64,000 nt of DNA. Origin: Eledone cirrhosa. Lineage: Eukaryota. The notes beneath the pieces were generated by a model. That model was not told the DNA's origin, made no database searches, and worked only from the letters and a program-made list of their open reading frames with translations. Location of the stretch: positions 24,800,001 through 24,864,000 of the forward strand of contig OZ024759.1 in assembly GCA_964016885.1 (NCBI GenBank), written 5' to 3'. Every line of letters starts with the position of its first letter. The first letter of the stretch is position 1. Below, one piece after another: positions 5,948 to 63,190 of this stretch. The translations under genes and the position numbers were made by a program.

Positions 5948-5980
<33 letters not shown>

Positions 5981-5984
<4 letters not shown>

Positions 5985-15525: not shown

Positions 15526-15556
15526 GTAATATATATATATTGTTTTATTCTTTTAT

Positions 15557-19113: not shown

Positions 19114-19183
19114 TCTCTCTGTATGTCTATCTATCTGTCTATCTATATATCTATCTATCTGTCTATCTGTCTGTCTATACCAA

Positions 19184-20639: not shown

Positions 20640-20789
20640 AAAATCACCATTCCTTGGCTGTCAATGTTTACATCAATGCCAGTGTATGCCATTATAGTGA
20701 GTAACATATCAGCTGACTGGGGAGTCTATACTCTTCTTACTGGAATACCAACTTACATGAAGGAAGTTCTAAAGTTCGACATAGCGGCT
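20640..20789 (+). CDS. SLC17-family transporter exon
   Basis: cttcag|AAA...GCT|gtaag; KITIPWLSMFTSMPVYAIIVSNISADWGVYTLLTGIPTYMKEVLKFDIAA. Confidence 0.95.
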
Positions 20790-21562: not shown

Positions 21563-21695
21563 AATGGTGCAGCGTCAGCATTACCCTATATCGGTCTATG
21601 GATTCTTATTAATGTCTTTGCCTTTCTTGCTGATTATGTACGGAAGAAGAATATAATGAACACAACCTGGACAAGAAGATCTTTTGATGCTACAG
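21563..21695 (+). CDS. SLC17-family transporter exon (not in the ORF track)
   Basis: tttacag|AAT...ACA G|gtaat; NGAASALPYIGLWILINVFAFLADYVRKKNIMNTTWTRRSFDAT(G). Confidence 0.95.
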
Positions 21696-22427
21696 GTAAT
21701 AATTGTTTCTACGTTTGGCACAAGGTCAGCAATTTGAAGGGAAGGTGGGCTGAACATTGGAAAAATGGATGCTAAACAATAATGATAATATATCAACTTG
21801 CTTTGGGAAACTTGGAGTACCTAAGAAGGTATTCACCAGTATACCAAGTATTTCATACAATATAGTATATATATATAAATACATATATATGCATAAGCAC
21901 AGAGATGACGATGAAGGACCGTGACAAATGGAGAGATGCTGAATAGGACCTATCTCACCCTTGCAAGCAGGGAAAAGTGGACATAAAATGATGATTATAA
22001 TATATATATATATATATCATAATCTTTAATCTGTTATTTTAATAAATATATATATATATATATGTACACATTCTTCTATATATATATATATACACATTCT
22101 TCTATATATAAATTTCTGTGATTCTGTCAGAACATGTCAGAACATGTAAAAAAAGAGGAGTAATTTGACTACCTCATACTACTCTCTCTTTACGTCTGTT
22201 GCCTGCGTGAATGTCTGTGTGTGTGTGTAAAAGAAAGGCAGGGGTCGTGAAAAAAACTATATGAAAATACCATTTCATTTGTTATGCTGTGTATGTGTTT
22301 GTATGAATGTATGTCTGAGTATATTTTTGTAAGTGTGTCTGCACGTTTATATTTATATACTCTTACATATGAATGTATGCATATGCTCATACACACATAT
22401 GCGTGAGCATCTTGAAAAAGAATCCTA

Positions 22428-22492
<65 letters not shown>

Positions 22493-22633
22493 GGTGCTCT
22501 AAAAAGGTAACTCCTGTGAATATCGGAGGTCAACTGATATATGCATACACACTCTTATATATATATTCGTGTGTGTGTGTGTGTGTAAAGTAATTTTTAA
22601 CTATCTTTAACTTTCTTTTTACAAACTTTGCAG

Positions 22634-22875
22634 GAAAATTTATCCCAGCAATTCTTTTAATTGGCCTTGGTTACATGGACTGTCGAAGACCGTACCTAGC
22701 AGTTGGTCTGCTTACACTGGCTGTATCACTGACTGGTCTGCAGTACAGTGGTTTCATAGTGAACCATGTGGATATAGCACCTCCAGTAGCTGGAATACTG
22801 TTTGGAATTTCAAATTCCTTAGCTGCCATCACTGGTTTCATATCACCCTTAGTTACGGCAGCGGTCACTCCAAAT
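22634..22875 (+). CDS. SLC17-family transporter exon
   Basis: ttgcag|GA AAA...AAT|gtaag; (G)KFIPAILLIGLGYMDC...GFIVNHVDIAPPVAGILFGISNSLAAITGFISPLVTAAVTPN, containing the NHxDIAP motif. Confidence 0.95.
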
Positions 22876-23429
22876 GTAAGTATTACTTATTATTTGTTAC
22901 AAGGTGGATTGGCAGTATCGGTAGAGGGTCGGACGCCATGTTTTGTTGCATAGAGTTACGGCCCTTCCCATTCCAAGTTCAAATCCCGCCGAGGTTAACG
23001 TTGCTTTCATCCTTACGGGGTCGATAAAATAAAGTACCAGTAATGTACTGGGATAATTGTTGGCCTTGTGCCAAACGTAGAAACATTTATTTGTTACAAT
23101 GGCGGCAGATTGGCAGAGGGTCGGATGCTATGCTTTGCAGCATAGAGTTACAGCCCTTTATGGTCAGAGTTCAAATCCTGCTGAAGTTAACTTTGCTTTC
23201 CATCCTTACGGGGTCGATAAAATAAAGTACCAGTAATGCACTGTGATAATTGCTGGCCTTGTGCCAAAATTAGAAACGATTATTTGTTACAAGTAACACT
23301 AACACAGCATAATTCAGAATATCGGCATGGGGCCTAACAGTTAGGGTGTTGGATTTGTGATCCTAATGGGTTTGATTCCTAAACCAGGTTGTGCATTCTG
23401 TTCTTTAGTAAAACACTTCATCCTGGATC

Positions 23430-23875
23430 ATGGATACACTAAAGCTCTGACATCTGGCAACTGACTTGGTAAACACCCATAAAATTATCAACCATCTTAC
23501 CAACAACAACCCTAAGCACCTTTTTGAACTCCATGTGTCTAACACACATGGGAATGCCTACAATGTCAGAAAACAGCACAGCTCCCATGACTTTCGGAAA
23601 CATCTTTTCATGCTCACAGTTGCTGAAGCATTTAACAAACTCCTTGCATCAGTTGTTAGCCACCAAGACACTGCAACCTTTAAAACCTCCATGCTTCCTG
23701 AAATTCGCCAACACTGCACCTGATATCCCCCCCTCCATACACATGCACACATGTATATCATGACTCATACACTGCTCACTTTCCTGACATTTATACATTA
23801 TTCTATGTACTATACATGCACCTTTGATGAGTTGTAATGCACCTGAGCACTGTACACAGTAATATCATTATTATT
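23430..23875 (+). mobile_element. CR1/L2-like LINE 3' end nested in a SINE
   Basis: HSSHDFRKHLFMLTVAEAFNKLLASVV plus a shared 3' UTR ending (ATT)n; copies at 44945-45352 and 61918-62200. Confidence 0.7.
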
Positions 23876-24236
23876 TCACATTGCTCCAGTACACTCAGAT
23901 GAAATTAGGTACCAGCTGGGAGGTTTAGTCCTGTGATGAACTAACATCCTGTCCAGTGGGTGGTGAATTTTATATTCTCAGTTGCTTAATGCTGATGCAA
24001 GTGAGATAAATACTAGCCTGGTGAGCCTCAAGGCTTGGGGCAGACTTTATCTATAACAAACAGGCACAGGTATGACTGAGTGGTTAAAGACTTCACTTAG
24101 CAACTACAGGGTTTTCGGTTCAGTCAGACAGCACAGCATTTTAGTTGTAAATGTCTTCTACTATAGTTACATGTTGACTGATACCTTGTGAATGGAATTT
24201 GGTACTGCATAGAAACTGCAGAAGCCCACACATCTG

Positions 24237-24466
24237 TTAACCCTTTTGTTACCATTCCGGCCCAAACTGGCTCTGATTCTATGAAATAAATTAAGGTTTC
24301 CAATTTAAATTAATATCTTCCAACATAATTTTATAAAAGAACCTTACATTAAGTTACTATCTTAGTAATGAAATAATCAATAATTTTAGTAAATCCCACA
24401 AAATTCTTCATTAATTAATTGCAATAGAGGATGTTTCATTAGAAATGCAGTCATGAAAAGGGTTAA
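24237..24466. mobile_element. Second piggyBac-like MITE family
   Basis: TTAA-CCCTTTT ... AAAAGGG-TTAA; related fragments at ~26484, ~29226-29474 and ~60840-61030. Confidence 0.55.
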
Positions 24467-24897
24467 ATATAATTCAACACATAATTAATTATCACACCTG
24501 GTAAAGCTGCTACTTCTCTGAATTGGGAGATCACAGCTCCGATACTTTGGGCATGTGGTTAGAATGTCTCAGAAAAGAATCACTGGACAGATTTTACAAG
24601 CAAAACCAACTGGCAGGAGACCCTGAGCAAGATAGTTGGATAATATAACATCCATGAGGTTGGCTGGTCTTGCTTGGGGATCCAGCTGGATCAGTTGGGA
24701 ACGGTTGCTTCTGAAAGGACCCGCAGGAAGGAGTGTTTGAGGACTCTGTCCCCCCCCCCCCCATTCTGGCTCTCCTCCAATTAATTGGGAGAAGACGACG
24801 AAGAAGGAGACGAAGAAAATGACAATGAAGAAGAAGACATAATTGTAATTAATGAATTAATTAACATTTAACAATTTTGTTTATTCTTGTCTTTCAG

Positions 24898-25086
24898 GGA
24901 ACTCAAGCTGAATGGCAAATAGTATTCTACATCTCAGCTGCCGTCTATATATTTGGTGGTATATTTTACTTGATCTTTGCATCAGGAGAGATTCAACCTT
25001 GGTCAAAAAAATGTACAAGTTCTTCAGAGCCTAAAGTAGTGGAAGTTTCTTTAAATCCTTTGCTATCAGATCCAGCCAAAGTTTGA
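24898..25086 (+). CDS. SLC17-family transporter terminal coding exon
   Basis: tttcag|GGA...TGA; GTQAEWQIVFYISAAVYIFGGIFYLIFASGEIQPW...AKV*. The seven exons sum to 1035 nt in one frame. Confidence 0.95.
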   Translation, partial: GTQAEWQIVFYISAAVYIFGGIFYLIFASGEIQPWSKKCTSSSEPKVVEVSLNPLLSDPAKV

Positions 25087-28842: not shown

Positions 28843-31659
28843 TTACACACATATATATATATATACAAGAAGACAACCTTACAATAATGAGACCAGCAAT
28901 TTGCCCACTGGGACACATGATTTCATAAAAGCATTATACAACTACTTCTAAATCTAGAAGTGAGATTACTGTTGTTGTTGATGCTGTTATATTTCTTTAT
29001 TAACTCTGAAAGGGCAGTGGATTGGCAATATCGGTAGAGATTTGGAGACGATGCTTTGCAGCATTGAGTGACATCCCTTCAAATCCTGCCGAAGTTAGCT
29101 TTGCCTTTCATCCTTATGAGGCCAATAAAATAAAGCACCAGTAATGCACTGGGGTCGATTTAATCGACTTTCCCCTCTCCTTAAATTGTTGGCCTTGTGC
29201 CTAACTCAGAAATCATTATTAACTCTTAACTCTTTTGATACCTAACTGCCTAAAACGACCCCTGGTTCTATAATACTAAACTGTTTATTTCAGATTGTTA
29301 TTATTTATTTACAATCCTATCATAATTTTATGTAAACACTTATGATATTCTATGTTCTAAATATCAGGTAAATAATGAAAGTTACTAAATCCTTGGAAAT
29401 TCTCAATTATTTCCAATATTTTTTGATAAACATTGGCAAAGCCTTTGTTACAAATAGGGTAATGAAAGTGTTAACCCTTTAGCATTTACATTACTTTATT
29501 CTTGTGGTAAAGGCTTTATCTCACATGATATCGAATCTACAATATTTTGATGATGTTATTATTTATTTTGAGAACAATATTTTAACGTTGGTATACGCGG
29601 CTGGTTATAGCTGGTTTGAACAGAAAGAGGTGAGAGAATTCTGGCTGGATATCGCCGGTTTAATGCCCCAAAGCATATGGAATCACATTAAGAAGACATA
29701 CTTGGAAAGTGCAAAACAGAACTTTGACTACTTCACATTAAACATTTTCACAATGATCTGTCCACTTGTAAAATGACTATAAACATTTGAATTAACAAAC
29801 CTGATTTTATATATTTTCTGCAAAATCATTACAAGATGTTAAGGGACAATTAACAACCATACATGTGCAACGATATTTCTTGCATCACATTAAAGTCTTT
29901 ACTCTTATACTGCAAATTTTCACAACAATTTGTTTGCTAGTAAAGGTATTGTAAACGTTTGAAATGACAAACCTTATGAAAGATATCTTTTGCAAAATCC
30001 TTATAGGATGTTAAGAGTTACTATGGAAATGTAATGTCTTCTCATTGTGTACGTTTTTATTGCTTTGCTTTCTTATTCCATTTTAATTCCCTTTAAGGTC
30101 CTTGCCGCCCCTAATGTTTGTAGCAAGGACTCAACAATGGCAGCTCTTAACAAATATGTCATACTAGTTGAAAGAATTGATAAAATTTGTCTTATTACTT
30201 AGTCCCACATGTTGCATAGTAAATAATTTTGCTAGTCGGGCATTGCTGAATAAAAGCATGTGATGTGTGTAGAAAAAGTGGTTAGCTTCTGAAAAGTTGA
30301 ATACATGGTGTTGATCCAGTTCTTAGCTGGAAATATTTTTTCTTTTGCTTTTGCAATAATGCTCTTTGGAAAGAATTGAATATCACAGCCTCACATGCCC
30401 CCTTCTTTTAAAATACCAGACCTCTGTATAAAGTAAAGCAGAAATTAACAGTCATTGGTTTATTGCAGGTTGTCACACCTATGATTCTACAAAACTGAAT
30501 TTTTTTTTTCCTTTGATATGTGGTGGATATACAGTATATAAAAAAACAATAGGAAATACGAATATCAAAAGTGAAATCGGTGTAATATTCATAACCTCCA
30601 AAGTGAAAATATTGTAGCACCTCATTTATGTAGAATTTTGAACTTCATAAAAATCGGTGAAATATTGACCTCCAATATAAGCTAATCTCCCATTTTACCA
30701 TACATTTTTCATATATTTCTCTGCTTATATACGAGTATATATGGTATTAGATGGTGTTCACTATTACTTGGACACTACATTTTACGGTTTCAAATTCATA
30801 CTTGAATCAAAACTATTAATGTCTACTAAAAGTTTAATTAATCTATAAATGAAGTTATTGAAAAAAAAAAAAATTAACGAATTACAGTGTGGTTTTACAA
30901 CCCCTCCCTTCTAATACTTCCTAGAACTCCTTGAAAATTATAAGGTTATGTACTCTTATAAATTGGTCTAATATTCACCTCTGAAGTGAAAATATTGTAG
31001 CGCCTCATTTATGTAGAATTTTGAACTTTGTGAAAATTGGCAAAAATTGACCTCAAATATAAACTAATCTCTCATTTTTACCATCAATTTTTATTGTAGT
31101 GCACCTGAGCACTGTACACGATAATTTTCATTATTATTATTATATGTGAGATAAGCCTAATATGAATGGACTGTTTTACACATCCACTATTATTTTATAC
31201 ACAAACCAGTAACAAAGTTCAGATTTAATAGCTATATGTTCTGACATAATTGATTAACTCTAGTCTGAGGCTGTACATTTCTTAGTTTGACATTGTACCT
31301 ATTTCTGACAGTTAGGTAGATTCTGGGGTGAAGTTTTACAGTTCCTGCACCCATCTGGTGATTATTTCTGATAGGAGGACTCTGTTCTGAAGATGAACAC
31401 TGTTTAGATCTGGTACACATTTCTGATAGGAAGACTCTGTTCTGAAGGTGAACAGTTCTTATTGCCAGTTTCTTTCAGTTTAATATTTTTAATGACCTTT
31501 TTTATTACTATTTTGTTTTATTTTAATAGCCTCTTTATTGTCATTCTTGTTTAATCGATTCAATTGACATCACTTTTTTTTATTGTCTCATTGATAATAT
31601 TTTTTATCAAACATTCAATCACCATTTTGCATTTACTTCATAAATATATATATACATAA

Positions 31660-31920
31660 ATACAAATGAATATATGATAGGGATAAACACTGATACAAGT
31701 ATACAAGTGTTTGCATTGTAAATGACCAAGTTAGCTAGATTGAAAAATACTAATTAAAATAATACGGTTTGTTTTTATTGATTTTATTATTTTAAATCGA
31801 GACAGGCAAACCATATTATTTTAATTAGTATTTTTCAATCTAGCTAACTTGGTCATTTTCAATGCAAACACATGTATACTTGTATCAGTGTTTATCCCTA
31901 TCATATATTCATTTGTATTA
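31660..31920. repeat. Inverted repeat, ~105 bp arms with a ~50 bp spacer
   Basis: aatacaaatgaatatatgataggg...aaaataata versus tattattttaatt...ccctatcatatattcatttgtatt. Confidence 0.85.
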
Positions 31921-32211
31921 CACGGCTCAGAAATATCCCTTTCTTTGAGCTATTTATTTGTAAAAGACTATTTAAGTTTATAACTCTATATATATACATA
32001 AATATATATTTCAGAGGAAGTAACGAAAGGCTTTACATAGAATCATATATATATATGATTCTGTAATTTTAATAATGTTGTACCCATAACATATTATCTG
32101 TATCGGTACCATCTTTTTTTGATATTCTAATGCCAAATTTTCATTGAGTTGGTACAAATTCATTTGTATGTATGTGTGTATGTGTATGTATATATATATA
32201 TATACACACAC

Positions 32212-32561
32212 AATATATTAATAAATGGAAACTATATTTATAAAACCATAATTATTTTATTATATATATTTCAAGGGCGACCAAGCCAATCTTGGTGCGC
32301 TTTCATCAGATAAAATACAAAATATGTTTTATAAATAGTAACATAACCATGGAAAACAACCTTGACGATTGAAAATTCGCTGGATAGCGCACCAAGAGTT
32401 GCTTGGCTGCCCTTGAAATATATATAATAAAATAATTATGGTTTTATAAATATAGTTTCCATTTATTAATATATTGAATATTTACTCCAGTAATCTGTTG
32501 AGTGCTCTATACCAGTTATAAACTTTTAAGTTTGTTGGAATCCCAACAAATTAAATATATC

Positions 32562-32993: not shown

Positions 32994-33905
32994 TCATCAT
33001 CATCATCATCATCACCGTTTTACGTCCGTTCTTCCACGCTAGCATGGGTTAGACGGGTTGTCCTGTTGTGTGCAGTGTCTGGTCAGCTGACCATGCCTTG
33101 CTCATACAGGAACTGATCTGGCTTGATTTCTACAGCTGGATGCCCTTCCTAACACCAACCTCATTTACAGTGAGTGCTGGGTGCTTTTTCGTGGCGCCTA
33201 CACGTCCACTTTACAGTGTGGGCTGGGTGCTTTTTTGCCGTGGCACCTCCACGACCACCTTGCGGTGGGGGGTGTGGGGGCATATTGTTTATATGCTTCA
33301 GCATGTACCCATGGGAGGTCGGGTACTCTGTATTACTGCGTGACGCCAGAAGTCACGGTCGTGTGTCATTGTCTTTGAGAGGTGTAATTGGGTAAGGTCG
33401 GCTTTTATCACCTCATCCCAGGTCATCTTGGGTCTCCCCACTCCGCGGTTTCCATCAACTTCTAGTGCTCTGCACCTTTTTATGCAGCTGTCATCCTTCA
33501 TACACATCACATGTCCATACCAGCGCAACCGCCTCTCCTGCACACAGCATTTGATTCCTCTTATGCTCAGTCTCTCTCTCAATTCATTTATGCTTTGTCG
33601 TTCACGTATATTACTGTTACACATCCATCGGAGCATGCAGGCTTCGTTTCTCTCTAATCTACGTAAGTCTTCCACCTTCAGCGCCCAGGTCTCACTACCA
33701 TGCAACATCGCTGTTCGGATACACGCATCATACAGTCTGCCTTTCATTCTGAGGGAGAAGCCTTTTGCAGCTAGCAGTGGTAGTAGTTCCCTAAACTTCT
33801 TCCATCCCGTTCTTACCCTAGTTATTGTACTTTCTGAACACCCACCTCCGTTGCTAATTCGGTCACCTAGGTAGCAGAAGCTGTCTACTGTTTCTACAGG
33901 GCCCT
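32994..33905 (-). mobile_element. 5'-truncated RTE-clade LINE (C-terminal ORF plus 3' tail)
   Basis: FCYLGD...GWKKFRELLPLL...KGRLYDACIRTAMLHGSETW...RLRWYGHV...GRPKMTW; ends in (ATG)n. Confidence 0.9.
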
Positions 33906-34322
33906 CCCAGAGATTGGTGGTACTTGTTTCCTGTGGCTGTATATACTATTGTATTTTTGCAGTAAAGGCTTTACCTCACATAATATTGAATCTATGAGAT
34001 TTTGGTAACAATACCTTATCATCAGTATGAATGGCCGGTTTGAACAGAAAGAGGTGAGAGACTTCTGGCCGGATACGGCTGGTTTAACCCTTTAGCATTT
34101 GTTTCTTTGGTCCAATGTGACAAGTTCCACATCCACTCGGTAAGTGAGTGAGGTCTATGAATTTGTCAATTCGGATAGAAAAAAGAAATTTTAATTAAAA
34201 AAAATTAAGTCAGTATTTTTAACATAACTTAAAATTTTCTTTTGATCAGTGTTATTTAAATTATGATGGAAAATTTTAATTTAGATATTTACTCATTAAG
34301 ATGGGTGGTTTTATGTCATGGA

Positions 34323-35682: not shown

Positions 35683-40620
<4,938 letters not shown>

Positions 40621-40629
40621 ATATAGACA

Positions 40630-43635: not shown

Positions 43636-44510
43636 TTTATGTCTGCTTGCAAGAGTGGGATCTGTCCTTTTCAGTACAGCATCTCTACATTCATCAAACT
43701 TCCATTGGGATTACTTGGCATATCTTCACCCAGCACATCAAATGGCCATACCAATCAACGTGGTCTTCTCTCCTGCACACTACAGTTTCTCTCTCAACTC
43801 TTCCATGTTTGATCGTTTACAAACACATATTGCTACATTAACTAGAGGAAGGGAGCTCTCAGGAGAGCTGAACAGCATATCTTCAGAGAAGGAACCCCCT
43901 CTCAAGCAAGAGTTTCGGCTGCAACTTCTTACACTCTAAAGGGCCTGAGCCGCATCCAGGTCATAATGCTTGGGTGTCCTTCTGCTAACATTTAACTATT
44001 TGCATAGTGGAAACTTGTTGAGTATTTTAACCATATGGAGATCTAGCTGGAAATCCTATCAGTTGCAAAGTATTGAGTACTCTGGTACGTTATGGTCTAC
44101 CTGGTTCCTTACCACACTTCCTTCGTTATATATTTATATATATAGTATATTTAAAATTTCATACACTTTTCATGTATGTGCAACCTTTGGTTTCGGGGTC
44201 CAGTTATGGCCACCACTGTCTAGGATTGGCTGCCCCCTCACGTTCATTACTTTATTTTATTATTTTTTATTGAAAAAATTATATAATTAAATAAAAATAT
44301 GTTTAATAAACTTTATTCCATACGAATTATACTAAATAAAATTTTCACTGCGAAAATACGAAAACGTGACTGAGAATGTGTGGCTAACTTTGAAAGGTAA
44401 CAGGTGCTGTTTTGAAATTCACGTAATTATTACCAAATTAAACTTTATTTTCTATATTTTATTAACTATTTCAACGTCCAATATGATTTATAAATGAATA
44501 TATGTATAAG

Positions 44511-46550: not shown

Positions 46551-47119
46551 GTGACATATTAGATAATATTGTCAAACACACATTACTATTCTAAAAGGAC
46601 ATTAGACAATACAGTCTTCAACATATCTTTCTTATATCACCTACCAATATTTTAGGACATTAGACAATACAGTCTTAAGTACAACTTTCTCATATTGTAC
46701 TCTATTGATCTAAGACAAAACCATCTTAACTCTTTAACATTGACATTATTTTATATTTACTATTGTATTTTTATGGTAAATACTTTATTCCACATAATTA
46801 TCTCGCATGATATTGAATGTATGAGCTTTTGATTTATTTTTAGAACAATACCTTAACATCAGTATGAGCAGCTGGTTTGATAAGGGTGAGAGAATTCTGG
46901 CAGGTTTAACCCTTTAGCATTTACATTGCTCTATATTTACTATTGTATTTTGACAGTAAACACTTTATTTCACATAATATCTAATCTTTGAGATTTTAAT
47001 AATATTTATTTTGAGAACAATACCTTAACATAAGTATGAGCAGCAGGTTCAAACGGAAAGAGGTGAGAGAATTCTGGCCAGGTTAAATACATCATTATTG
47101 TATCACATAGTTTTCCCCA

Positions 47120-48310
47120 AGTAAACTGAACAGAGGGACTGGATGTAGTAGTATAGTAAGTAAGGCAAGGCAGTTGGACCTTCGGGGATAGTTGCCAAGA
47201 TGCTGAAAGAATTTGGGATGGTGGGTCACATGATAGCCACCCTACAAAATGGTGCTATACCCAATGACTGGTGTAGCAGTATCGTCGTCAACTTCTACAA
47301 GGGCAACGGAGATACTCTAGACCAAGGAACTATAGAGGCATCAAGTTGGTTGACCAGGTGATGTAGGTCACAGAAAGAGTTATAGCACAGCTGATTAGGG
47401 ACCAAATTAAACTAGATGTGATGCAGTTTGGATTTGTGGCAGGTAAAAGTACCACAGATGCCATCTTCTGTTTGAGCCAACTGCTGGAGTACCCAGTTGA
47501 AAGGTAAACCCCTCTACTTGACATTTGTTGACCTGGAGAAAGCTTTTAACAAAGTCCCCTGTTCCATTATCTGGTGGGCTCTTAGAAAATTAGGAATAGA
47601 TGAGTGGCTTGTGAAGGCTGTTCCAGCCATGTATAGAGGAACAGTCAGCAAGGTTAGAATTAACAATGGCTATAGTGAAGGTTGGTGTCCATCAGGGCTC
47701 TGTTTTTAACCCTCTCCTGTTTATTATCGCTCTGCCGTCAATAACAGAAGAGTTTAAGACTGGCTCCTCATGGGAACTTCGTATGCAGGTGATTTAACCC
47801 TTATAGCTGAATCTATGGTAGAACTAGAGAAGAAATTCCAAATGTGGAAGCAAGGCCTAGAATCAAAAGGTCTTAAAGTCATCATGTCAAAGACAAAAGT
47901 CCTAGTACGTGGAAAGGAAAATAGGGCCCAGATTCCCACTGGGAAGTCGCCTTGCTCAGTGTGCAGGAAAGGAGTAGGTTGAAATTTCTTCCTATGTTAC
48001 AAATGAAAACTATGGGTAGTGGGATCTCTGAGAGGTTAGGTGCATTAAGTAACAAGAGCTCACAGAATACTAGCTCCTTCAAATGCCCAGAGGGCTCTGT
48101 AGAAATAATCAACAGTTTCCATTATCTGGATGACCAAACAGCAGTGGAGGAGGGTGTTTCAAAAGTAGAGTAGCCAGATTAAGAACAGGATGGAAAAAGT
48201 TCAGAGGGATCAGACGCAGTGTAAAAGAAAGGAGACTGTGATGCGTATGAAGGGTGACAGCTGTAAAAAAAGGTACAGGTGGGATGAGGTGATAAAAGCA
48301 GACCTTGCAC
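47120..48310 (+). mobile_element. Decayed RTE-clade LINE reverse transcriptase
   Basis: KAVGPSGI, NYRGIKL, QFGFVAGKSTTDAIF, FVDLEKAFNKVP, YAGDL, GLKVIMSKTKV, GWKKFR; multiple frameshifts. Confidence 0.9.
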
Positions 48311-49939
48311 AATTACACCCGGTAAAGTGGAAGTGACACAACAAAAACACCCAGCCCAACCTGTGAAGGGGTTGCAACAAAAGTGCCAGTTCACATTGCG
48401 AAGTGGTTGTTTTGGTGTCATGACAAGCAGCACACAGTCCACACTGTAAATGTGGTTGGTGTTAGGAAGGGCATCCAGCCATAGCTGGTTTCTACACCAG
48501 GGTGCCCTTACCATAGTAATTCTTTGTAATTTTAGAATTTCACTAAAATTCATAATAGAAATATATTTACTCCGAATTACTTACCTTCACCAATGTTGTT
48601 TATATAGATATACACTTGCAATTCCTCATTATTGTAGGAATTTGTGATGTATTGTTACACCTTACATTACCATAAATATACATTAATCAGTTTCCCATAG
48701 CTGCTGTTCTATATGTTTTACTGTGTCTCCATCATGACATTTCAGCGAGCGTTAGAAATGTTTAATATTTAATTTAATTTGGTTCCTATTCAGCTGTGCT
48801 ATAACTCTGTGCCCTTCATGACCTGGTCAACCAACTTGTACAGCTGGTCCCTCTCTTGGGTCAATATGTGACAAACTTTCTTCTTCTCATTCAGTAATCT
48901 TTCATAATGGCACTTCCATGCTACCTTCTTTTCAGCGTCATTGATATCATAATTTTTCAGGAACTCCTATTGCTCCTCTATTCGCCCTTCCTTGCTGTTG
49001 AAGGCGTCGATCAACATACTTCTAAATTTGTTACTATTTCATGGGTCTTTTAACTTCATACTCGTCTCCTCTAGGTTGGCTTCTATTGTCGGGTTCTTCT
49101 AGCTAACTACTGTATATGTATGTATATATATACTTATTGGTTTCCACCTGTCTATCTGGCTTGACCCATTGAAAATATGTTTAAACATTGCTCCAGTCCT
49201 GGTAGAATCAGTGCCCTTTAATCCTTCCTGTCCAGAATGTTAGCTCTATGGAACTCCCTGACAATATCATAACCTCAAATGTAGACTTTTAAAACATTTC
49301 CAGCTGTGACCATCCTGTGTTTATATGAGTATCTAAGACTATATCGTCATAAGTATTCTTATTTGGTTTAGAATGTGTGAGAGCCCAAGTATTTGGTGGC
49401 AAATTGAAAGAGTCGATAGAATGGTTTGCGGTATTTGTTTCGGCTCAATGAGTTCAACTTTGCATTTCATCCATTTGAGTTCGATAAAAAAAAAAGGTAC
49501 CAGTCTAGTACTGGGCACAATTCTTCCTCTCTATCCTATCCTACTCTGGAAGAAATCTGATGTATACTTCTTCCTGTGTAGTTAGCAGCCGAAAGTGTTC
49601 TTTTAAAAGAAAAAAACTTTATTTCATGTTTCTCCAGTAAACTCAATAGTTAGAGAGTTAATCCTATCCATGGATAGGGAGAGTCTGGTACTCAGTTTTC
49701 ATATTTTTATTTCCAGAAACAAGTATATTTACTTACATATTAATTGTATATATGTAAAAAAATACTAGTAGTTTCAAAATTAATATATATATATATAGAG
49801 AGAGAGAAACGGAATGAGAGAAAGGTAACACAGAATACATTTTGAGGCGTGTTATCTCACCTTCTTTCCGTTTCTATGATTTTTTTTTTAAATAAATAAA
49901 ATTTTATCTATAAGTATGACTAATTTACTTAGTAAAATT

Positions 49940-50081
49940 GTGGCGATGCACGTAGCGGTTCGGACTTCGTCGCCTACCTAGGTATGGCGTGACACATTCT
50001 ATGTGTCCGAAGATCGAATCGTTGCGAGGGCATGCGGCCTCGGCAGCCAGGACTATTTGAAGGCGCGAGCAATCGTTTTTT
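49940..50081 (+). pseudogene. Deleted mirror copy of the structured RNA-like segment
   Basis: Same sequence as 56739-56920(-) but missing 10 nt at the 5' end and ~30 nt in the 3' hairpin; retains TCCGA, which pairs with TCGGA. Confidence 0.4.
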
Positions 50082-52151
50082 ATTAGAATTATTTCCCCTT
50101 TATGGAACTCTTCTGTTACTTTTTTTTTTTATTGATTTCCAGGTTTTAAAAAAGATCATCTTGGATATTACGTTCTTTTAAAGAGGTATGTAATGTTTTC
50201 TTTGTATACAATATAACTCTCTACACACACCACATCATTATGGACATTTTATTCGTAGAAACTAAACCTCTTTATACATATATTTTCTTTATTGACATAA
50301 TTCGATTTAGACCTTTCCTTTTTAGAGACATACACATTCTTCACTAGACACATACCTTCTCAATATACAGCTACATTTTTATTATCTTCTCTATTTCTCT
50401 TGTTATCAATAAGAACATAGGGAGCTGGAGTTGTGAAGTGTGTGGTCGTCTACTGCTCTCTACATCTGGGTACATCAATACTAGGGGTTGCATAGGGAAA
50501 CGGCAATCATTTGCAAAGATTAAGCAATCAATATATATGTATACGCATTCATATATGGAAGTGTGCATGCATGTATATATATGTGTGTCTTTCGATATAG
50601 ATAAGTATATATGAATATACTGGCAGAGTCACACTTTACTATCCCAAGTATCAAGTACTCTTGAATAATGGTATATATATATATACACACACACACACAA
50701 AACAAAGTATAACAAAGGAAATCCTGTAGTTACCCCCTATTTGTATACATATATATATATATATATATATCATAACAAGTTATCGTTATAGGTGATCCAG
50801 TTAGAGGTTGTGAGTACTCCGTATTGTGGATAGTTTTAGTGTATGGTGTTGTTGGACACAACAAGAGGTTTCCTTAGTTAGGTAGCGAGTTCGCGAGAAT
50901 TCCCATGCAGGTTATTCTTGGAGTAATAATAGTGAAAGAGTGATGAATGACATGGTCGGCTGTACAAAAAGGATTTATTTATAGTATTAACAATTGTTTC
51001 ATTGATCAGGTGAGTCAAAAGGTCGCTAATCACTCGAAGTTGCCTCAGTCGACCTTAAATACAGTGTTTACCTCTGATCAGAGGTAAACTGTATTTAAGG
51101 TCGAGTGATTAGCAGCCTTTAGACTCACCTGGTCAATGAAACTTTTGATAATACTAGAAATAAAATCTTTTTGTACAGCCGACCATGTTATTCTTCAATC
51201 TTACACATATATATCAGGGTAAAGACCCTCACGATTGACCATGGGATTTTCATCTAGAAGTTCCCCTCCGAGACCGGGCAAGGTTGTTTGTGGAAGACCA
51301 GCTGTCTTCCCTCTCTACGCCACTGATGTTGTCCAACTCATTTCGACAGACTGATCTGGAGAAACGTGAGACAACGCTAGTAAATCTTTATTTTATATTG
51401 ATGAGTTTCATTTAAACATTTTCTGTTTATTTCCCTCCATAATGTCAGCAATAATTAACCAATAGTTTTGTTTAGCTGCTGCCCCACCTCCACGTTATGT
51501 TGTATTTCCAATGTAATGCCACCTCACATATTTCTCGGTCATATCAAATAAAATTTAGCGTATTTCTATATTATTTAAGTTGGCAAATAAGATAACATCT
51601 CTGTCTGACGACCGATCCAGACGTATATTATTATTGTCTATGATCCAGAAATCTTTGGTAATGGAGTAGTTATATTTTGTGTTGTTCACTTTCTAATATA
51701 TATATATATACGAGAAAACTCATCGCTATATACCCCCCACCCCACAGACATATATATATATACACACATACACACACACAGACACTTATATATATACACA
51801 CACACAGACATATATATATACGAGAAAACTCATCGCTATATACCCCCCACCCCACAGACATATATATATACGAGAAAACTCATTGCTATATACACACACT
51901 CACACACACATCATCATCATCATTTTACGTCCGCTTTTCCCTGCTTGCAAGGGTGGGACGTGTCTTATTCAGCACAGCATCTCTCCACTTGTCACGCTCC
52001 GTCGTCATCTCCACCGTGAGCTTCAGCGATCTGAGGTCTGATCTCACCACCTCCACACAGACACACACACACAGGCACTTATATATACACACACACACAT
52101 ATATATATATACGAGAAAACTCATCGCTATATATACACACACACACACACG

Positions 52152-52209
<58 letters not shown>

Positions 52210-52564
52210 GACGCACACTTATATATATATATACAGTTGGTAAATAATATACTTCCTTCTTATCTTCGTGTTGGAGAACTTTCTCTTTGTCAACATGTCC
52301 CAGTCAGTCGTTCGAGTGTCATACTAGATGTGCAGTCGTGCTTTACAATCATGAGTTCGATTCTCACGTGTAGCAACGTTCTGAAGGACTTGTGCTTGAT
52401 TCTGATAGTTACTTTACCATGGCAGAATCTCCTTTGGTCTTGCTATATTCTGGTTATTAATATTAACCAGAATCTTTTGAGAACTGTCGTCTCTGGCCAG
52501 AGTGAATATTTCACCCGTCTACATAACATAGAACCATTTACATTCTTAGTTTCTTTCTTTTTTT

Positions 52565-52600
<36 letters not shown>

Positions 52601-53170
52601 AATATACATGTTTAGTTTAATATTCTTTTAATTGATAATGTATGTAAATGACTTTCATTCCTTTTTACAGATGTCCAGCCATTAAGGTCATATGCTGTGT
52701 TATTTGCCGTAACAAGTGGGAATGTCGTAGTTTCTTTTAATAAATATACGAGAAAACTCATCGCTATACTCACACACACATCTTTTAATAAAGAAAGTTT
52801 ACATATTATATACGAATTGTATTCAGTTTATTTTGATAAAAATGAATAAAGAAAGTTTAGATCTTATATACGAATTGTGTTCTGTTTATTTTGACAAAAA
52901 TGAATAAAGAAATCAAGAGTCTAGAAGAAACCGAGTAAGTGTTTACGTAAGTGGTTACGAAGTTTCTAAATAAAGAAACTAAGAGTTAGATAAAGTTTCA
53001 TGTAAGAAACTGAGAATGAACAAGTTTCTAAATAAAGAAACTAAGAGGTAGATAAAGTTTCTTGAAAGAAACTGAGAATAATGAAGTTTCTAAATAAAGA
53101 AACTAAGAATGTATTTGAAATTATCGAAAAAAAAAAATCTATGTAATGAGGCTCCATTTTTTTTTTTATT

Positions 53171-53628
53171 AAAGGGAGGTAACTCTGTAATATTTTGAGC
53201 GAATTACCTCCCTTTGAAACACCTTCGTCACCGTCGTTACCACCGTCGGCACCTTCGTAACCGTCGTCACCATTACCGCCGCCACCTGGTGGCGGAGGAA
53301 AAGATTCCGACGAAGACGAAGGTGCACCGCCGTCTTCGTCGGTATCTTTACCGCCGCCACCTGGTGGCGGAGGAAAAGATTCCGACGAAGACGAAGGTGC
53401 ACCGCCGTCTTCGTCGGTATCTTTACCGCCGCCACCTGGTGGCGGAGGAAAAGATACCGACGAAGACGGCGGTGCACCTTCGTCTTCGTCGGAATCTTTT
53501 CCTCCGCCACCAGGTGGCGGCGGTAATGGTGACGACGGTTACGAAGGTGCCGACGGTGGTAACGACGGTGACGAAGGTGTTTCAAAGGGAGGTAATTCGC
53601 TCAAAATATTACAGAGTTACCTCCCTTT
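53171..53628. repeat. GC-rich nested-palindrome core
   Basis: 75-bp unit built from two inverted ~37-bp halves; axes at 53287, 53324.5, 53362, 53399.5, 53437, 53474.5 and 53512; flanking hairpins aaagggaggtaa...ttacctcccttt at 53171-53215 and 53584-53628. Confidence 0.95.
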
Positions 53629-54569
53629 AATAAAAAAAAAAAATGGAGCCTCATTACATAGATTTTTTTTTTTCGATAATTTCAAATACATTCTTAGTTT
53701 CTTTATTTAGAAACTTCATTATTCTCAGTTTCTTTCAAGAAACTTTATCTACCTCTTAGTTTCTTTATTTAGAAACTTGTTCATTCTCAGTTTCTTACAT
53801 GAAACTTTATCTAACTCTTAGTTTCTTTATTTAGAAACTTCGTAACCACTTACGTAAACACTTACTCGGTTTCTTCTAGACTCTTGATTTCTTTATTCAT
53901 TTTTGTCAAAATAAACAGAACACAATTCGTATATAAGATCTAAACTTTCTTTATTCATTTTTATCAAAATAAACTGAATACAATTCGTATATAATATGTA
54001 AACTTTCTTTATTAAAAGATGTGTGTGTGAGTATAGCGATGAGTTTTCTCGTATATTTATTAAAAGAAACTACGACATTCCCATTTGTTACGGCAAATAA
54101 CACAGCATATGACCTTAATGGCTGGACATCTGTAAAAAGGAATGAAAGTCATTTACATACATTATCAATAAAAAGAATATTAAACTAAACATGTATATTA
54201 AGTGTGTGTGTGTGTGTGTGTGTCCAAAAAAAGAAAGAAACTAAGAATGTAAATGGTTCTATGTTATGAAGACGGGTGAAATATTCACTCTGGCCAGAGA
54301 CGACAGTTCTCAAAAGATTCTGGTTAATATTAATAACCAGAATATAGCAAGACCAAAGGAGATTCTGCCATGGTAAAGTAACTTTCAGAATCAAGCACAA
54401 GTCCTTCAGAAGGTTGCTACACATGAGAATCGAACTCATGATTGCACATCTAGTATGACACTCGAACGACTGACTGGGACATGTTGACAAAGAGAAAGTT
54501 CTCCAACACGAAGATAAGAAGGGAAGTAGAAGTATATTATTTACCAACATATATATGTGTGTGTGTGTC

Positions 54570-54635
<66 letters not shown>

Positions 54636-54942
54636 CGTGTGTGTGTGTGTGTGTGTGTATATATAGCGATGAGTTTTCTCGTATATATATATATGTGTGT
54701 GTGTGTGTCTGTGTGGAGGTGGTGAGATCAGACCTCAGATCGCTGAAGCTCACGGTGGAGATGACGACGGAACGTGACAAGTGGAGAGATGCTGTGCTGA
54801 ATAAGACACGTCCCACCCTTGAAAGCAGGGAAAAACGGACGTAAAATGATGATGATGATGTGTGTGTGAGTGTGTGTATATAGCAATGTGTTTTCTCGTA
54901 TATATATATGTCTGTGTGTGTGTGTATATATATATATATGTC

Positions 54943-54981
<39 letters not shown>

Positions 54982-56738
54982 GTCTGTGGGGTGGGGGGTA
55001 TATAGCGATGAGTTTTCTCGTATATATATATAAGTGTCTGTGTGTGTGTATGTGTGTATATATATATATATATGTCTGTGGGGTGGGGGGTATATAGCGA
55101 TGAGTTTTCTCGTATATATATATATATATTAGAAAGTGAACAACACAAAATATAACTACTCCATTACCAAAGATTTCTGGATCATAGACAATAATAATAT
55201 ACGTCTGGATCGGTCGTCAGACAGAGATGTTATCTTATTTGCCAACTTAAATAATATAGAAATACGCTAAATTTTATTTGATATGACCGAGAAATATGTG
55301 AGGTGGCATTACATTGGAAATACAACATAACGTGGAGGTGGGGCAGCAGCTAAACAAAACTATTGGTTAATTATTGCTGACATTATGGAGGGAAATAAAC
55401 AGAAAATGTTTAAATGAAACTCATCAATATAAAATAAAGATTTACTAGCGTTGTCTCACGTTTCTCCAGATCAGTCTGTCGAAATGAGTTGGACAACATC
55501 AGTGGCGTAGAGAGGGAAGACAGCTGGTCTTCCACAAACAACCTTGCCCGGTCTCGGAGGGGAACTTCTAGATGAAAATCCCATGGTCAATCGTGAGGGT
55601 CTTTACGCTTATATATATGTGTAAGATTGAAGAATAACATGGTCGGCTGTACAAAAAGATTTTATTTCTAGTATTATCAAAAGTTTCATTGACCAGGTGA
55701 GTCAATGCTGCTAATCACTCGACCTTAAATACAGTTTACCTCTGATCAGAGGTAAACACTGTATTTAAGGTCGACTGAGGCAACTTCGAGTGATTAGCGA
55801 CCTTTTGACTCACCTGATCAATGAAACAATTGTTAATACTATAAATAAATCCTTTTTGTACAGCCGACCATGTCATTCATCACTCTTTCACTATTATTAC
55901 TCCAAGAATAACCTGCATGGGAATTCTCGCGAACTCGCTACCTAACTAAGGAAACCTCTTGTTGTGTCCAACAACACCATACACTAAAACTATCCACAAT
56001 ACGGAGTACTCACAACCTCTAACTGGATCACCTATAACGATAACTTGTTATGATATATATATATATATATATGTATACAAATAGGGGGTAACTACAGGAT
56101 TTCCTTTGTTATACTTTGTTTTGTGTGTGTGTGTGTATATATATATATACCATTATTCAAGAGTACTTGATACTTGGGATAGTAAAGTGTGACTCTGCCA
56201 GTATATTCATATATACTTATCTATATCGAAAGACACACATATATATACATGCATGCACACTTCCATATATGAATGCGTATACATATATAGTGATTGCTTA
56301 ATCTTTGCAAATGATTGCCGTTTCCCTATGCAACCCCTAGTATTGATGTACCCAGATGTAGAGAGCAGTAGACGACCACACACTTCACAACTCCAGCTCC
56401 CTATGTTCTTATTGATAACAAGAGAAATAGAGAAGATAATAAAAATGTAGCTGTATATTGAGAAGGTATGTGTCTAGTGAAGAATGTGTATGTCTCTAAA
56501 AAGGAAAGGTCTAAATCGAATTATGTCAATAAAGAAAATATATGTATAAAGAGGTTTAGTTTCTACGAATAAAATGTCCATATTGATATGGTGTGTGTAG
56601 AGAGTTATATTGTATACAAAGAAAACATTACATACCTCTTTAAAAGAACGTAATATCCAAGATGATCTTTTTCAAAGAACCGGAAGTAAAACGAAAAAAA
56701 GCAACAGAAGAGTTCCATAAAGGGGAAATAATTCTAAT

Positions 56739-56920
56739 AAAAAACGATTGCTCGCTCTCTCCAGGAGTCAGGCCAGCATATAACCAGCCTTCAAATAGTC
56801 CTGACCGCCGAGGCCGCGTGCCCTCGCAACGATTCGATCTTCCGACACATAGAATGTGTCACGCCATACCTAAGTAGGCGACGAAGTCCGAACCGCTACG
56901 TGCATCGCCACGCGAAGCCA
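56739..56920 (-). ncRNA. Candidate structured Pol III RNA or tRNA-Arg(TCG)-like pseudogene
   Basis: CpG-rich segment ending in T6; acceptor-like stem CTTCGCG/TGCGAGG, TCGGA-CT-TCG anticodon arm start, and several hairpins. Confidence 0.4.
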
Positions 56921-57201
56921 CAATTTTACTAAGTAAATTAGTCATACTTATAGATAAAAATTTTTTTTAATTTTTTTAATTATAGAAATGCAAAGAAAGC
57001 GAGATAACACGCCTCAAAATATATTCTGTGTTACCTTACTCTCATTCCGTTTCTCTATATATATATTAATTCTGAGACTACTAGTATTTTGTACATATAT
57101 ACAATTAATATGTAAGTAAATATCCATGGATAGGATTAGCTCTCTAACTATTGGGTGTACTGGAGCAATATGAGATAAAGTTTTTTTCTTTTAAAAGAAC
57201 A

Positions 57202-58053
57202 GTCTTCCAAGAATGTAAGTAACCATTGTGGGTTCTAAATATCAAGAATGTAAAGAAAGTGTCTAAGGTTCGAATCTAAGTAAGTCAAGAAAAAATGTTG
57301 TAAAAAGTATCTAAGGTTCTATTCCAACTATCTTCAAGGGTTCTAAGAATCTAAGTTAGAAGGTTCGAATGTAGTAAGAAGTATCTAAGCTCCTATTCCA
57401 ACTGTCTTCTTAGAAACCTTGAAGGTTACTTACCTTCTTGGAAGATAGTAAGATTAGAACCTTAGATACTTCTTACTCCATTCTAAACTTGACTCTTAGA
57501 TTCTAACCCATGATAATTCTTGACTTACTTAGATACTTTCTTTACATACTTGGAAGACAGTTAGATGCTTCTTACTACATTCTTGACTTAGATTCGAACC
57601 TTTGATACTTCAAGGTTCTTGGAAGACAGTTGGATTCGAACCTTCAATACTTTTTTTTACATACTTGAAGGTTCTTGATACTTAGATGGTTACATTCTTG
57701 GACGACTGTTGGATTCGAACCCTTAATGACACTTTTTACATTGTTGATTTTTATTGATACTTATTTTTCATTCCCTTTATGTTACTACTTTTGGACAATT
57801 GTTACATTCGAACCCTTGATGGTTCTTTCTCTAATATTTCTTTCCTTTTCACATTATTGATATTTTCTATTCTCTTTCCTTAGATTGGAACCATTGGTGA
57901 TACTGTCTATTTTTGGAGCGACTGTTGGATTTGAAACCTTGATGAGGCTGTTTAAACATTTTTAGTTTCTTTGTGTCATTCATTTTTGTCAAAATAAACT
58001 GAACACAATTTGTATATAATATGTAAACTGTATTCATTTTTGTCAAAATAAAC
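57202..58053. mobile_element. Degenerate foldback-like module with short subrepeats, related to the inner arms of the palindrome
   Basis: Shuffled motifs (ggttcgaatc, tatctaag, cttccaag, aagaatgt) flip orientation near 57420; 57976-58053 matches 53895-54003 (ttcatttttgtcaaaataaac...gtatataatatgtaaact). Confidence 0.55.
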
Positions 58054-59885
58054 CGAAACCAAAGGTTGCACATACATGATAAGTGTATGAAATTTTAAAT
58101 ATACTATATAGATAATAATGAGTTGACAGACCCAGCATATTTATCAATGCTAGGACCGGTTGTATCTCAGCGTACTCAATGGGCAATGTAAGATACATAT
58201 ATATATATATAAGATATATACAAAGATATATATATATATATACTAGATTTATATACTATATAGAGAGAGATACGAAGTCTCATCACGAAAAATAAAATTT
58301 GTCTCATTTTGAAATTCGCATTTTTATGTCTCTTTCGGGCCATGGGTTCCTTCTTTCACAATAATTCTACCTACCGTATGGGATTCCATTGTTTTCACAG
58401 AATGGAAACCTGCAGTATCAATATAACATATATGTTACGTACTGCATTGGACAATCAATTTACGAACAAATGGCGTCTTCGAACGTAACACATTCGTAAG
58501 TTGGAAACTTACTGTATATATATATCTTGTGTTGCCACACAACTGTTCCACATATTTTTTTTGTAAAATCATGGGTGAGTGGTAAATCGCGATCTTGGAC
58601 AAAATCTAATTGTCTGGCTCATTAAAAAAATATATAATTTATATATAGAACTGTTTCATTCAAAAGAAATCATATATATAGTTTAATGGATTGTAACCTT
58701 ACGTTACTGTTGGCTCACCAACTTGAGCACTTGATGCGCTATTGATTCCAGAGTCAAGCCCAATCGATACAGATTGAACCTTCAGGTGATCAAACGTGCA
58801 TCACACCTTAATAAACTTAATGATGAGATACTCACCCCTAGTTCTTACTTATTATTAACTAACTGGCCCTGTGCCGTCAAATTGTAATATGTATACATAA
58901 AATAATAAAAAGAAATGTTTGTTTGTTGGTTGGTTCCTTCACACTCACTCACACAAATGATACAAACATACAAACCTTTCTCAGTCGACGTTATCAACGC
59001 TTCCTTTCTAAGTCAATGTTATCAGCCCTTCCTTTCTCAGTTGACGTCATCAGCCCTTCCTTTCTCAGTTGACGTCATCACCCCTTCCTTCTTCAGCCAT
59101 CTCTTGTGATAGATAAAAACACAAGCATATTAGATATTAGTAATAGATTATATATACATACTCTAGGTGAACATGTGATTCTCCATGTTACGCATACTTC
59201 CTAAAAGTTAACTGAAACAATCAATGGTTCTATCTGGAACCAAACATAATCAATAAATCAAGTAAGAAACTCAAAAAGACAACAAATATATTTAAAAAAT
59301 AATTTATTCATATATGGAAATCTGTGTTAATGATTGTAGCCAACTGACTACAACTGCGGTTTTTTTTTCAAATCTCTCCCATGTAGCAAACATCTCTTAT
59401 ATACAACTGGTAGACTGTACAGTCTGATGTAGGAATATTTCACAAAACTGTAACTTAAAAATTGATAAAAATGATCAAAGAGCAATTACAGGAGAGAGAG
59501 AAAAAAAAGGGGGAAAAAAAAAAAACACATAAAAAAAATTGTACCATTGATGATACAAGAGCAATTTTGTTTTAGACATAAAAAAATATATAAAGGAAAT
59601 TTGAAGATACAATTTTACATGGTTTTGATAGAGAGAAATATTGTCAAGAGACATTTAGGCTTTACTAGATTACTAAGAAATATTTAAACAATGTCTGTTT
59701 ATTGTTGTTGTTGTTATCTGAAAGGTATAACCTTTTGTTTCGCATTGGCTAATATTTATTACTGATTGTGACAATGTGACAAAAATGAACTAGTAAGGGG
59801 CAACAAGGCAACTATCTCTCCTTCCGGTCACAAAGAAAACTGTTTATTTTGCCCTATAGTTTGATAACCATTCTTTTCCTCAGTG

Positions 59886-62200: not shown

Positions 62201-62609
62201 TGTCTATTTACCACATTGCATGTTACATACTCCCAAGTGATCGTATACATTAGTACCACTACAACTATTACATAAATCATGTCATGCAAATCTACCTTGA
62301 CTGGATTTATTTACCATTTTGTAAGAATGATACACTAAGTCCAGAAAATACTATCACTTCCTTGTGACTAGTGTGAAGAAGAAGCACACAAAGTATTTAT
62401 TCTATGAAATCATCACCATCATCATAATTACTATTATTATTGCTTTAACAGAGATTGTCTATAGAAAGTGTCTAGCACATCATTGGTAAGATTTCTGGAA
62501 ATTTCTACAGCAACATGTGGCCAGATATTTGCTCTCTCTATCTCATTTTACACTCATCATTTCCTGCTCCAGCTGTGCCAATGACACAACCACCTGTCAA
62601 GTGTCGTAA

Positions 62610-63190
62610 TGATGTAGCACTGGTGCCACAATAAATTACAGCCAGTACACTCCGCAAAGTGGTAGTGTTGGTGACATGATATAACATAGCCAGTACTCTG
62701 TAAAGTGGTAGCATTGGTGACATGATATAACATAGCCAGTACTCTGTAAAGTGGTAGCATTGGTGACATGATATAACACACCATGAAAGGTGGTGTTACT
62801 GGTGACATGATAACACACCCAGTACACTCTGTAAAGTGGTAGCATTGGTGCCACAATACAACATAACCAGTACACTCTGTAAAGTGGTAGTGTTGATGAC
62901 ATGATATAACACACACTGTAAGGTGGTAGTACTGGTGACATGATAACACATGTAAGGTGGTAATACTGGTGTCACAATAAAACACAGTAGTACAGTGGTT
63001 GGCATTAGAAAGAACATCCATCTAGAAAACCAAGCCAAAAGTGGAGCAAGGTGCAGTCTCTTAACCAGTGTAACTTCAGTACCATGACAACTTGCCAAAC
63101 TGCAGACACCATGGCAACGTGTCTAACCTCAGTACCATGACAATCTGTCTAACCTCAGACACATGAAAAAGATGTTAAATGGTGATGATG
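62610..63190 (+). repeat. SINE remnant with tandemly amplified internal domain
   Basis: Repeated ccagtacactctgtaaagtggtag...ggtgacatgatataac (reverse complement related to the 51-bp unit), followed by tggttggcattagaaagaacatccatc and a (TGA)n tail. Confidence 0.65.

Follow-up and report, generated by a model that had tools for sequence, protein, structure and literature searches.

The 64,000 bp window of the Eledone cirrhosa genome analysed here (GenBank assembly GCA_964016885.1, contig OZ024759.1, positions 24,800,001 to 24,864,000, forward strand) contains a 7.6 kb palindrome at 49596–57201, centred between 53399 and 53400 and without an unduplicated spacer. Its arms (49596–53399 and 53400–57201) are ~92% identical with gaps counted, homology stops at 57201, and the duplicated arm includes ~3.2 kb of host DNA (54018–57201), the amount given in an earlier note made from the sequence alone. 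The favoured explanation, which we hold with about even confidence, is fold-back repair: a break in one modular element, fold-back priming, copying of ~3.75 kb, rejoining through microhomology to the rest of the element on the distal side, and later conversion. The earlier note had proposed transposon ends engaged in alternative transposition, a reading that is weakened by the evidence below. All statements on repeat families rest on copies inside the window.

TTAA sites at 53169 and 53627 flank the core in which the centre lies. This core is rich in GC and CpG and contains, besides an inverted repeat of 12 bp and a repeat of 21 bp, a 75-bp unit that is composed of two imperfect hairpins and arranged as a direct array. 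The 75-bp period is free of mismatches until 53381/53456, the CpG observed/expected ratio of the array is 1.5 versus 0.48 in the window, and one half of the centre (53170–53420) folds on its own at a z of −11.8. From the left, the unit is direct as far as 53455; from the right, the perfect mirror starts at 53450; the six bases of overlap (53450–53455) are complementary to 53344–53349. Eight of 243 central mirror pairs are mismatched, all eight within 53350–53449, and none of the 623 sites in 52726–53348, outside this imperfect stem, differs between the arms. A pre-existing short inverted homology is thus found at the switch point, with an imperfect stem kept at the centre and a perfect mirror outside it. 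The 6-bp overlap within the minisatellite accounts for the centre fully, with no added bases, and this is the product expected from a single-stranded 3′ end at 53455 folding onto its own array and priming synthesis. The left arm is probably the template copy, this being the more parsimonious choice because, with a right-arm template, an inversion within the array would have to have come first. The favoured explanation shares fold-back priming at the centre with two alternatives discussed below, in which the fold-back is resolved by homologous recombination or is driven by a mobile element. Candidates for the secondary junction are a 4-bp overlap at 57198–57201 or a homology switch near 50148. 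The central GC-rich hairpin minisatellite and the layered divergence of the arms were both unreported in the earlier note.

The inner arms are modular, as had been claimed, with 31/62-bp units and a unit whose period is 58 bp and not ~56 bp, and a modular, internally inverted block (the distal block) starts at 57202 where right-arm homology ends. Tandem subrepeats with 58-, 31/62-, and 79-bp periods are present in arms and distal block, the last at 57616–57763. The internal inversion of the distal block has a score of 141 that none of 300 shuffles reaches, and the block folds at a z of −12 (20 shuffles). A copy of the inner unit is present near the end of the distal block, as the earlier note stated: 57960–58062 matches 53874–53983 in the same orientation with 80% identity over 110 columns, rising to 90% in the best-matching 61 bp (score 131, reached by 0 of 300 shuffles, whose maximum is 51). 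The distal unit agrees with the inner units at 47/51 and 48/51 positions, and the inner units agree with each other at 46/51. Of the proposal that element ends bracket the duplicated arm, the presence of one repeat family (the 58-bp unit) on both sides is upheld, and the role of these sequences as transposon ends in alternative transposition is not. The inner arms are inverted relative to each other because they sit inside the palindrome, and they are not independent element ends. The left-arm and distal 58-bp units are also inverted relative to each other, like two sides of one element, so that the bracket needs no transposase; it would be a by-product of where the break fell.

Outside the 58-bp units the left-arm and distal sides are unmatched (68 of 300 shuffles reach the score). 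Beyond this unit the inner and distal blocks have a common purine-skewed vocabulary and little common sequence; they share no 10-mers, and their counts of shared 7-, 8- and 9-mers are equalled in 5, 16 and 59 of 118 control windows, respectively. Alignments of the inner and distal blocks beyond the unit are equalled in score by 1 and 0 of 300 shuffles, although shuffling is a lenient control for modular DNA. Within the left arm, 52539–52560 is an inverted match (21/22 bases; E 0.016) to the last 62-bp module at 53092–53113, and may reflect chance, local template switching, or a modular family that extends more widely.

The three positions taken in the earlier note as element ends are junctions and not demonstrable element termini. 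Position 52782 is the edge of a 36-bp insert (52745–52780) between 12-bp direct repeats. Five copies of the insert's motif are present in the left arm, four of them at 51712–52113, and none elsewhere in the window outside the palindrome at ≤3 mismatches; the insert could have been templated locally or could be a short piece of a retroposon. Position 57202 falls inside a 79-bp tandem module, with a paralogous module continuing where the junction copy becomes arm sequence, and the 4-bp overlap there is expected by chance at ~3% on a rough composition estimate. Position 58053 is the start of a 63-bp end of a different repeat (repeat X) with no detectable relation to the 58-bp unit.

Target duplications were sought at ten boundary pairs with 12 bp of slack. 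Nine pairs gave direct repeats of ≤6 bp (37 of 300 random pairs reach ≥6 bp), and no direct repeat longer than 6 bp was found at the eight pairs enclosing an element block or the palindrome. The sole 8-bp repeat (54012–54019/57191–57198) lies at the ends of the host segment and not outside the element blocks; at least 8 bp is reached by 4 of 300 random pairs. Excision of the host segment between these two copies would fuse the inner block directly to the distal block. A 6-bp direct repeat at 49589/58053 was rejected as a target duplication, being within chance.

These junctions bear on the possibility that a Foldback- or Mutator-like transposase, acting on ends of one family in sister-chromatid or similar alternative transposition, made the inverted duplication. 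The 58-bp tandem unit on both sides of the duplicated host DNA and the start of a modular block exactly where homology ends are in keeping with such an event, but the 57201/57202 junction is within a module and not at a definable end, the distal 58-bp unit is on the far side of its block, ~760 bp from that junction, the centre is a hairpin-primed switch in a minisatellite, and no transposase-like frame was recognised among ten window frames scanned with Pfam. The lack of direct repeats longer than 6 bp at the eight enclosing pairs also counts against it. After sister-chromatid transposition the two target-site copies end on different chromatids, and the lack of a target duplication is therefore not decisive. 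Ac/Ds sister-chromatid transposition is reported to yield inverted duplications down to 1.2 kb (PMC3239180). Overall, a transposase origin appears improbable.

The arms diverge in layers. Substitutions number 28/486 in 49596–50155, 6/1689 in 50156–51870, 14/803 in 51871–52725, and 0/623 in 52726–53348; the boundaries of these unmasked strata were picked by eye after viewing the alignment, and change-point and scan tests were added to lessen bias. With microsatellites masked, 25/419, 3/1488, 11/603, and 0/575 sites differ (6.0, 0.2, 1.8, and 0%), 39 in all, of which 14 are among the 2666 masked sites of the inner arms. The best change point is at 50148 (outer versus inner, p 3e-13), and differences within the inner arms are clustered (scan p 0.0065 and 0.0049). 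At a rate of 0.0036 per million years (given in PMC13282606 and assumed here to be per lineage) the outer stratum would correspond to ~8 and the inner arm to ~0.9 million years. A single event followed by even decay does not fit this pattern, and the palindrome is either an old duplication that has been patchily converted, a young one ending in an older inverted repeat, or two haplotypes.

In the second of these options, a young fold-back was resolved by homologous recombination, the outer 550 bp being two older inverted repeat copies and the junction lying near 50150/56670. The sharp change point at 50148, the few differences between inner arms, and repeat-like features of the outer segment, which in the left arm contains an old internal inverted repeat (49742–49939) and a CpG-rich stretch, all suit this account, as does the report that yeast fold-backs are mostly resolved by homology (PMC7467729). 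It leaves the uneven inner divergence unexplained, both outer copies would need the same 49596/57201 boundary, and no third copy of the outer segment was found among the window matches listed; this explanation is rather unlikely. An LTR (long terminal repeat) reading of the outer segment was rejected, with neither a 6–7 bp target match nor a CA-ended 5-bp match.

The third option is an assembly artefact in which the hairpin array linked two haplotypes or paralogous loci in head-to-head fashion, or in which polishing homogenised the inner arms. Strong hairpins produce fold-back reads, the diverged zone is about the length of one short-read insert, and inner-arm differences (0.5% substitutions and microsatellite length changes) resemble allelic ones. 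However, the arms also differ by indels of 7, 13, 31, and 51 bp, and a fold-back read of a single molecule therefore cannot explain the palindrome. No return of inverted homology is seen over the 5.9 kb that follow 58116, where matches are dispersed repeats, and the switch from direct to mirror sequence at the centre is orderly. An artefact is judged distinctly unlikely.

Under the favoured fold-back repair, the ancestral order would have been host DNA, 58-bp and 62-bp modules, GC array, a middle since lost, distal block, and inverted 58-bp units. Breakage or fork stalling within the array would expose a single strand whose 3′ end at 53455 pairs with 53344–53349, ~3.75 kb would be copied leftward to 49596, and the new end would be joined through microhomology at 57201 to the distal remainder of the element, with loss of the middle. 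Most differences outside the outer 550 bp would then be erased, either by conversion between the arms in patches or by recurrent repair at the centre, which is prone to cruciform formation. Later re-homogenisation of the arms by gene conversion is likely, and the palindrome is probably a neutral rearrangement. In the yeast scheme described in PMC7467729, resection is followed by formation of a single-strand hairpin and 3′ extension, with the longest available stem favoured, and human inverted-duplication junctions are reported to have 2–8 bp of inverted microhomology (PMC3907307).

Several observations weigh against this explanation. The pre-event structure and arm polarity rest on parsimony. 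Similarity to the distal block is absent for the GC core (39 and 299 of 300 shuffles score as high) and weak for the 62-bp modules, so the claim of one element depends on the 58-bp unit. The 4-bp overlap assumes that, of three paralogues, the module continued in the way that one does. The explanation also leaves aside the 8-bp repeat at the two ends of the host segment, albeit not significant after ten trials. The divergence of 6% implies an old event yet the centre is pristine, and later re-copying must therefore be added. Yeast fold-backs, as reported in PMC7467729, are mostly resolved through oppositely oriented homologies and not through microhomology.

Elsewhere in the window the GC core is unmatched. 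Its left edge, which starts with TTAA-AGGGA after a T-run, is possibly the left end of a separate non-autonomous element; the evidence is weak because TTAAAGGR is found at six other places in the window. HINE-like left features are present at 53157–53455, and such short repeats are frequent in the window. It is conceivable, although quite doubtful, that 53173–53455 represents the left portion of a non-autonomous element, either rolling-circle (HINE/Helentron-like) or Kolobok/T2-MITE-like, and that a single-stranded or cut intermediate of this element folded back and copied the flank. The T-run, the 12-bp subterminal repeat with its inverse 21 nt away, the short repeats, and the central tandem repeats resemble the DINE-1/HINE left module as described in PMC4067079 and PMC7492417, TTAA followed by AGGGA fits the T2-MITE rule given in PMC6004289, and folded-back structure is present at three scales (75-bp unit, distal block, and whole palindrome). 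However, a right end is lacking, the window abounds in short perfect inverted repeats and has the TTAAAGGR motif at those six other places, and the structure is a single copy for which ordinary repair gives an identical product. A broader proposal, that the core forms the end of a mobile element of octopus not yet catalogued, with the 75-bp repeat as a built-in hairpin primer, repeatedly making germline palindromes from kilobases of host DNA, is given little credence, and it is similarly speculative that a transposon-borne palindrome generator would copy like a rolling hairpin, yielding stable spacerless palindromes.

Other roles were considered and rejected. A coding role for the GC core lacks support: comparison of a 149-residue Pro/Gly/Asp frame at 53261–53707 with 130 candidates of near length and 1879 longer ones gave no homologue at E≤1, and the frame has no Pfam match and no usable Atlas match; its Pro/Gly and Ser/Asp runs arise because the 75-bp unit is self-complementary. 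A 106-residue frame (52246–52563) likewise has no usable Atlas match. A resemblance to parvovirus flip/flop ends suggested an endogenous hairpin-ended virus as a candidate; it was dropped, no viral frame being recognised in the ten-frame Pfam scan. As to a prokaryotic origin, the GC core is unmatched in phages and the distal block in plasmids. Sub-threshold Rfam matches in 49000–59000 number 53, nearly all of them microRNA-type hairpins, and a ribozyme family is absent among them, leaving a Penelope-like or retrozyme reading unsupported. Four matches to a pattern that we take to be a CTCF-like core are present in the GC array (53281–53507), with none elsewhere in the window.

Features of the palindrome and its flanks in the 64,000 bp window (coordinates are window positions).
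Feature	Coordinates	Strand	Remarks
Left palindrome arm	49596..53399	+	direct 75-bp array runs on unbroken from left side to 53455
Outer stratum, left arm	49596..50148	+	~6% diverged from mirror; 51-, 31-, 10-bp indels
Older spacerless 275-bp palindrome in host DNA, duplicated with arm	50932..51206	.	mirror 55619–55891
36-bp insert (52745–52780) between two 12-bp direct repeats (52733, 52781)	52733..52792	+	mirror 54008–54067
58-bp unit, 2.2 copies	52787..52912	+	mirror 53888–54013
31/62-bp AT-rich modules	52960..53110	+	mirror 53690–53841
TTAA-AGGGA start after T11 run, perfect 12-bp inverted repeat, 21-nt loop	53169..53215	+	mirror 53584–53630
21-bp GC-rich repeat, 2 copies	53220..53262	+	mirror 53537–53579
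Direct array, 75-bp GC-/CpG-rich unit (two imperfect hairpins), 2.4 identical copies	53273..53455	+	
Putative priming hairpin	53344..53455	+	53450–53455 pairs with 53344–53349, enclosing ~100-nt imperfect stem
Right palindrome arm	53400..57201	-	inverted copy of 49596–53399
Outer stratum, right arm	56673..57201	-	mirror of left outer stratum
Outer junction	57198..57201	.	4 bases common to arm and distal-block module
Distal modular block, internally inverted about 57420	57202..57975	.	65–72% identity, older inversion
58-bp unit, 1.6 copies	57960..58062	+	inverted relative to left-arm units 52787–52912
Repeat X end, 63 bp, begins in TA-rich DNA	58053..58115	-	97% identical to 44134–44196

The arms contain microsatellites and dispersed repeat fragments. 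The older palindrome within the host DNA has 78–79% self-inverted identity and is 98.9% identical to its mirror copy. A 24-bp motif with CA/TA tails is present in four copies at 51700–52150, where copy structure differs between the arms (22-, 72-, and 24-bp indels). The two repeat X ends (44134–44196 and 58053–58115) are the only copies in the window; they are inverted, face inward with 14 kb between them, and both start in TA-rich DNA. A single composite element with these tips could surround the palindrome, or each could be a separate Helitron or retroposon end; the decayed state of the intervening repeats speaks against a single old element. A canonical Helitron A|TC start is present in one of the two copies, and a 3′ end, which would have a hairpin and CTRR, was not identified. 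Repeat X was rejected as the source of the 58-bp unit, since a plausible alignment is equalled in score by 1316–2453 of 3000 random pieces, and its continuation (44197–44480) was rejected as a relative of the modular blocks (177 and 175 of 300 shuffles reach the scores).

Three other palindromes in the window (495–722, 31659–31919, and 32211–32476) are 230–270 bp long with short centres and 81–91% self-identity, and each begins immediately after a TA or CA run on its left. The first has relatives at 20883, 43083, and 58742, and the other two have no other match in the window. A sialin (SLC17) gene on the + strand, ~24 kb from the palindrome, has seven exonic segments (10963–25083) corresponding to residues 178–521 of the Octopus sinensis protein, which the exon at 22594–22950 matches at 99%. 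Its introns contain minisatellites at 12870–14825 (49 bp x40) and 16546–17924 (48 bp x29), the latter unit having an inverted relative at 62606–62986. A degenerate (TA)n array spans 4.9 kb (35684–40625), with G nearly restricted to one strand over 37001–40000. Frames at 33298–33945 and 47100–48500 resemble, by eye, decayed reverse-transcriptase fragments of long interspersed nuclear elements, and the former has no Pfam match at E 0.01. Two marginal tRNA-like Rfam matches at the gathering score (5975–6066 and 2066–2123), outside the palindrome and neither of them called by ARAGORN, are probably heads of short interspersed nuclear elements.

Instability is expected of a 7.6-kb palindrome whose centre is only an imperfect 100 nt, and its persistence together with the layered arm identity would provide a modest case in which to test conversion between arms away from sex-chromosome amplicons. 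If the favoured explanation is true, the locus is a natural record of fold-back repair in which the priming hairpin can be read to the base. Its importance would be much greater if the 75-bp core sits at many palindrome centres across octopus genomes. Because no gene was recognised in either arm, the palindrome is unlikely to have a direct phenotypic role. Judging by titles and the starts of abstracts, no paper on such a structure was found in searches on octopus and cephalopod palindromes and octopus Helitrons; the mechanism is already known, and the locus and its repeat family are probably undescribed.

Among known systems, Foldback-type transposons (FB, Galileo, Tetris, and sea-urchin TU, as described in PMC4079207) also have modular tandem subrepeats, are non-coding, and carry inverted copies of a unit on either side. 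The Tetris paper requires long terminal inverted repeats and 8–10 bp target duplications (PMC4079207), whereas here ~100 bp is shared at 80–90% between independent sides without matching tips, no 8–10 bp target duplication was found at the ten boundary pairs, whose boundaries are themselves uncertain, and the long inverted repeat takes in 3.2 kb of host DNA. The Ac/Ds sister-chromatid product reported in PMC3239180 is similarly an inverted duplication of flanking DNA beside element sequence. Precise ends and a footprint are predicted there (PMC3239180), but the new junction at 57201/57202 has no precise terminus and the centre no recognisable footprint.

HINE/DINE-1 Helentrons (PMC4067079, PMC7492417) and T2-MITEs (PMC6004289), as described in those reports, share with the core a T-rich or TTAA boundary, a subterminal inverted repeat, and central tandem repeats, and HINEs with tandem repeats are reported as common in another mollusc (PMC4067079, PMC7492417). 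Unlike a HINE, the core has a possible left end alone, a second subterminal repeat and 3′ palindrome not being found independently of the mirror. Of the T2-MITE tips, TTAA-AGGGA is present at 53169, its partner at 53630 is an uninformative mirror, and the inner partner (53204–53217) has TTGA. The coral CMITEs described in PMC2872659 have CCYT tips, which the GC core does not fit. Mutator, hAT, MITE, and Helitron families are reported as recently active in O. vulgaris (PMC13282606).

The human sex-chromosome palindrome P6 is described as having near-identical arms and conversion tracts of ~2 kb on average (PMC3723533), similar to the strata here, although the present palindrome is far smaller, has no real spacer and no gene recognised in its arms, and its conversion is inferred from one sequence. 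Compared with yeast (PMC7467729) and human (PMC3907307) fold-back inversions, it is small (3.8-kb arms), interstitial, and present in a germline assembly, with arm strata of different age, and at its centre an imperfect stem of ~100 nt within a minisatellite forms the loop, compared with sequenced human spacers of at least 766 bp in PMC3907307. As in the fold-back inversions those two reports describe, it has an imperfect central hairpin, short inverted homology at the switch, and a second, rejoining junction.

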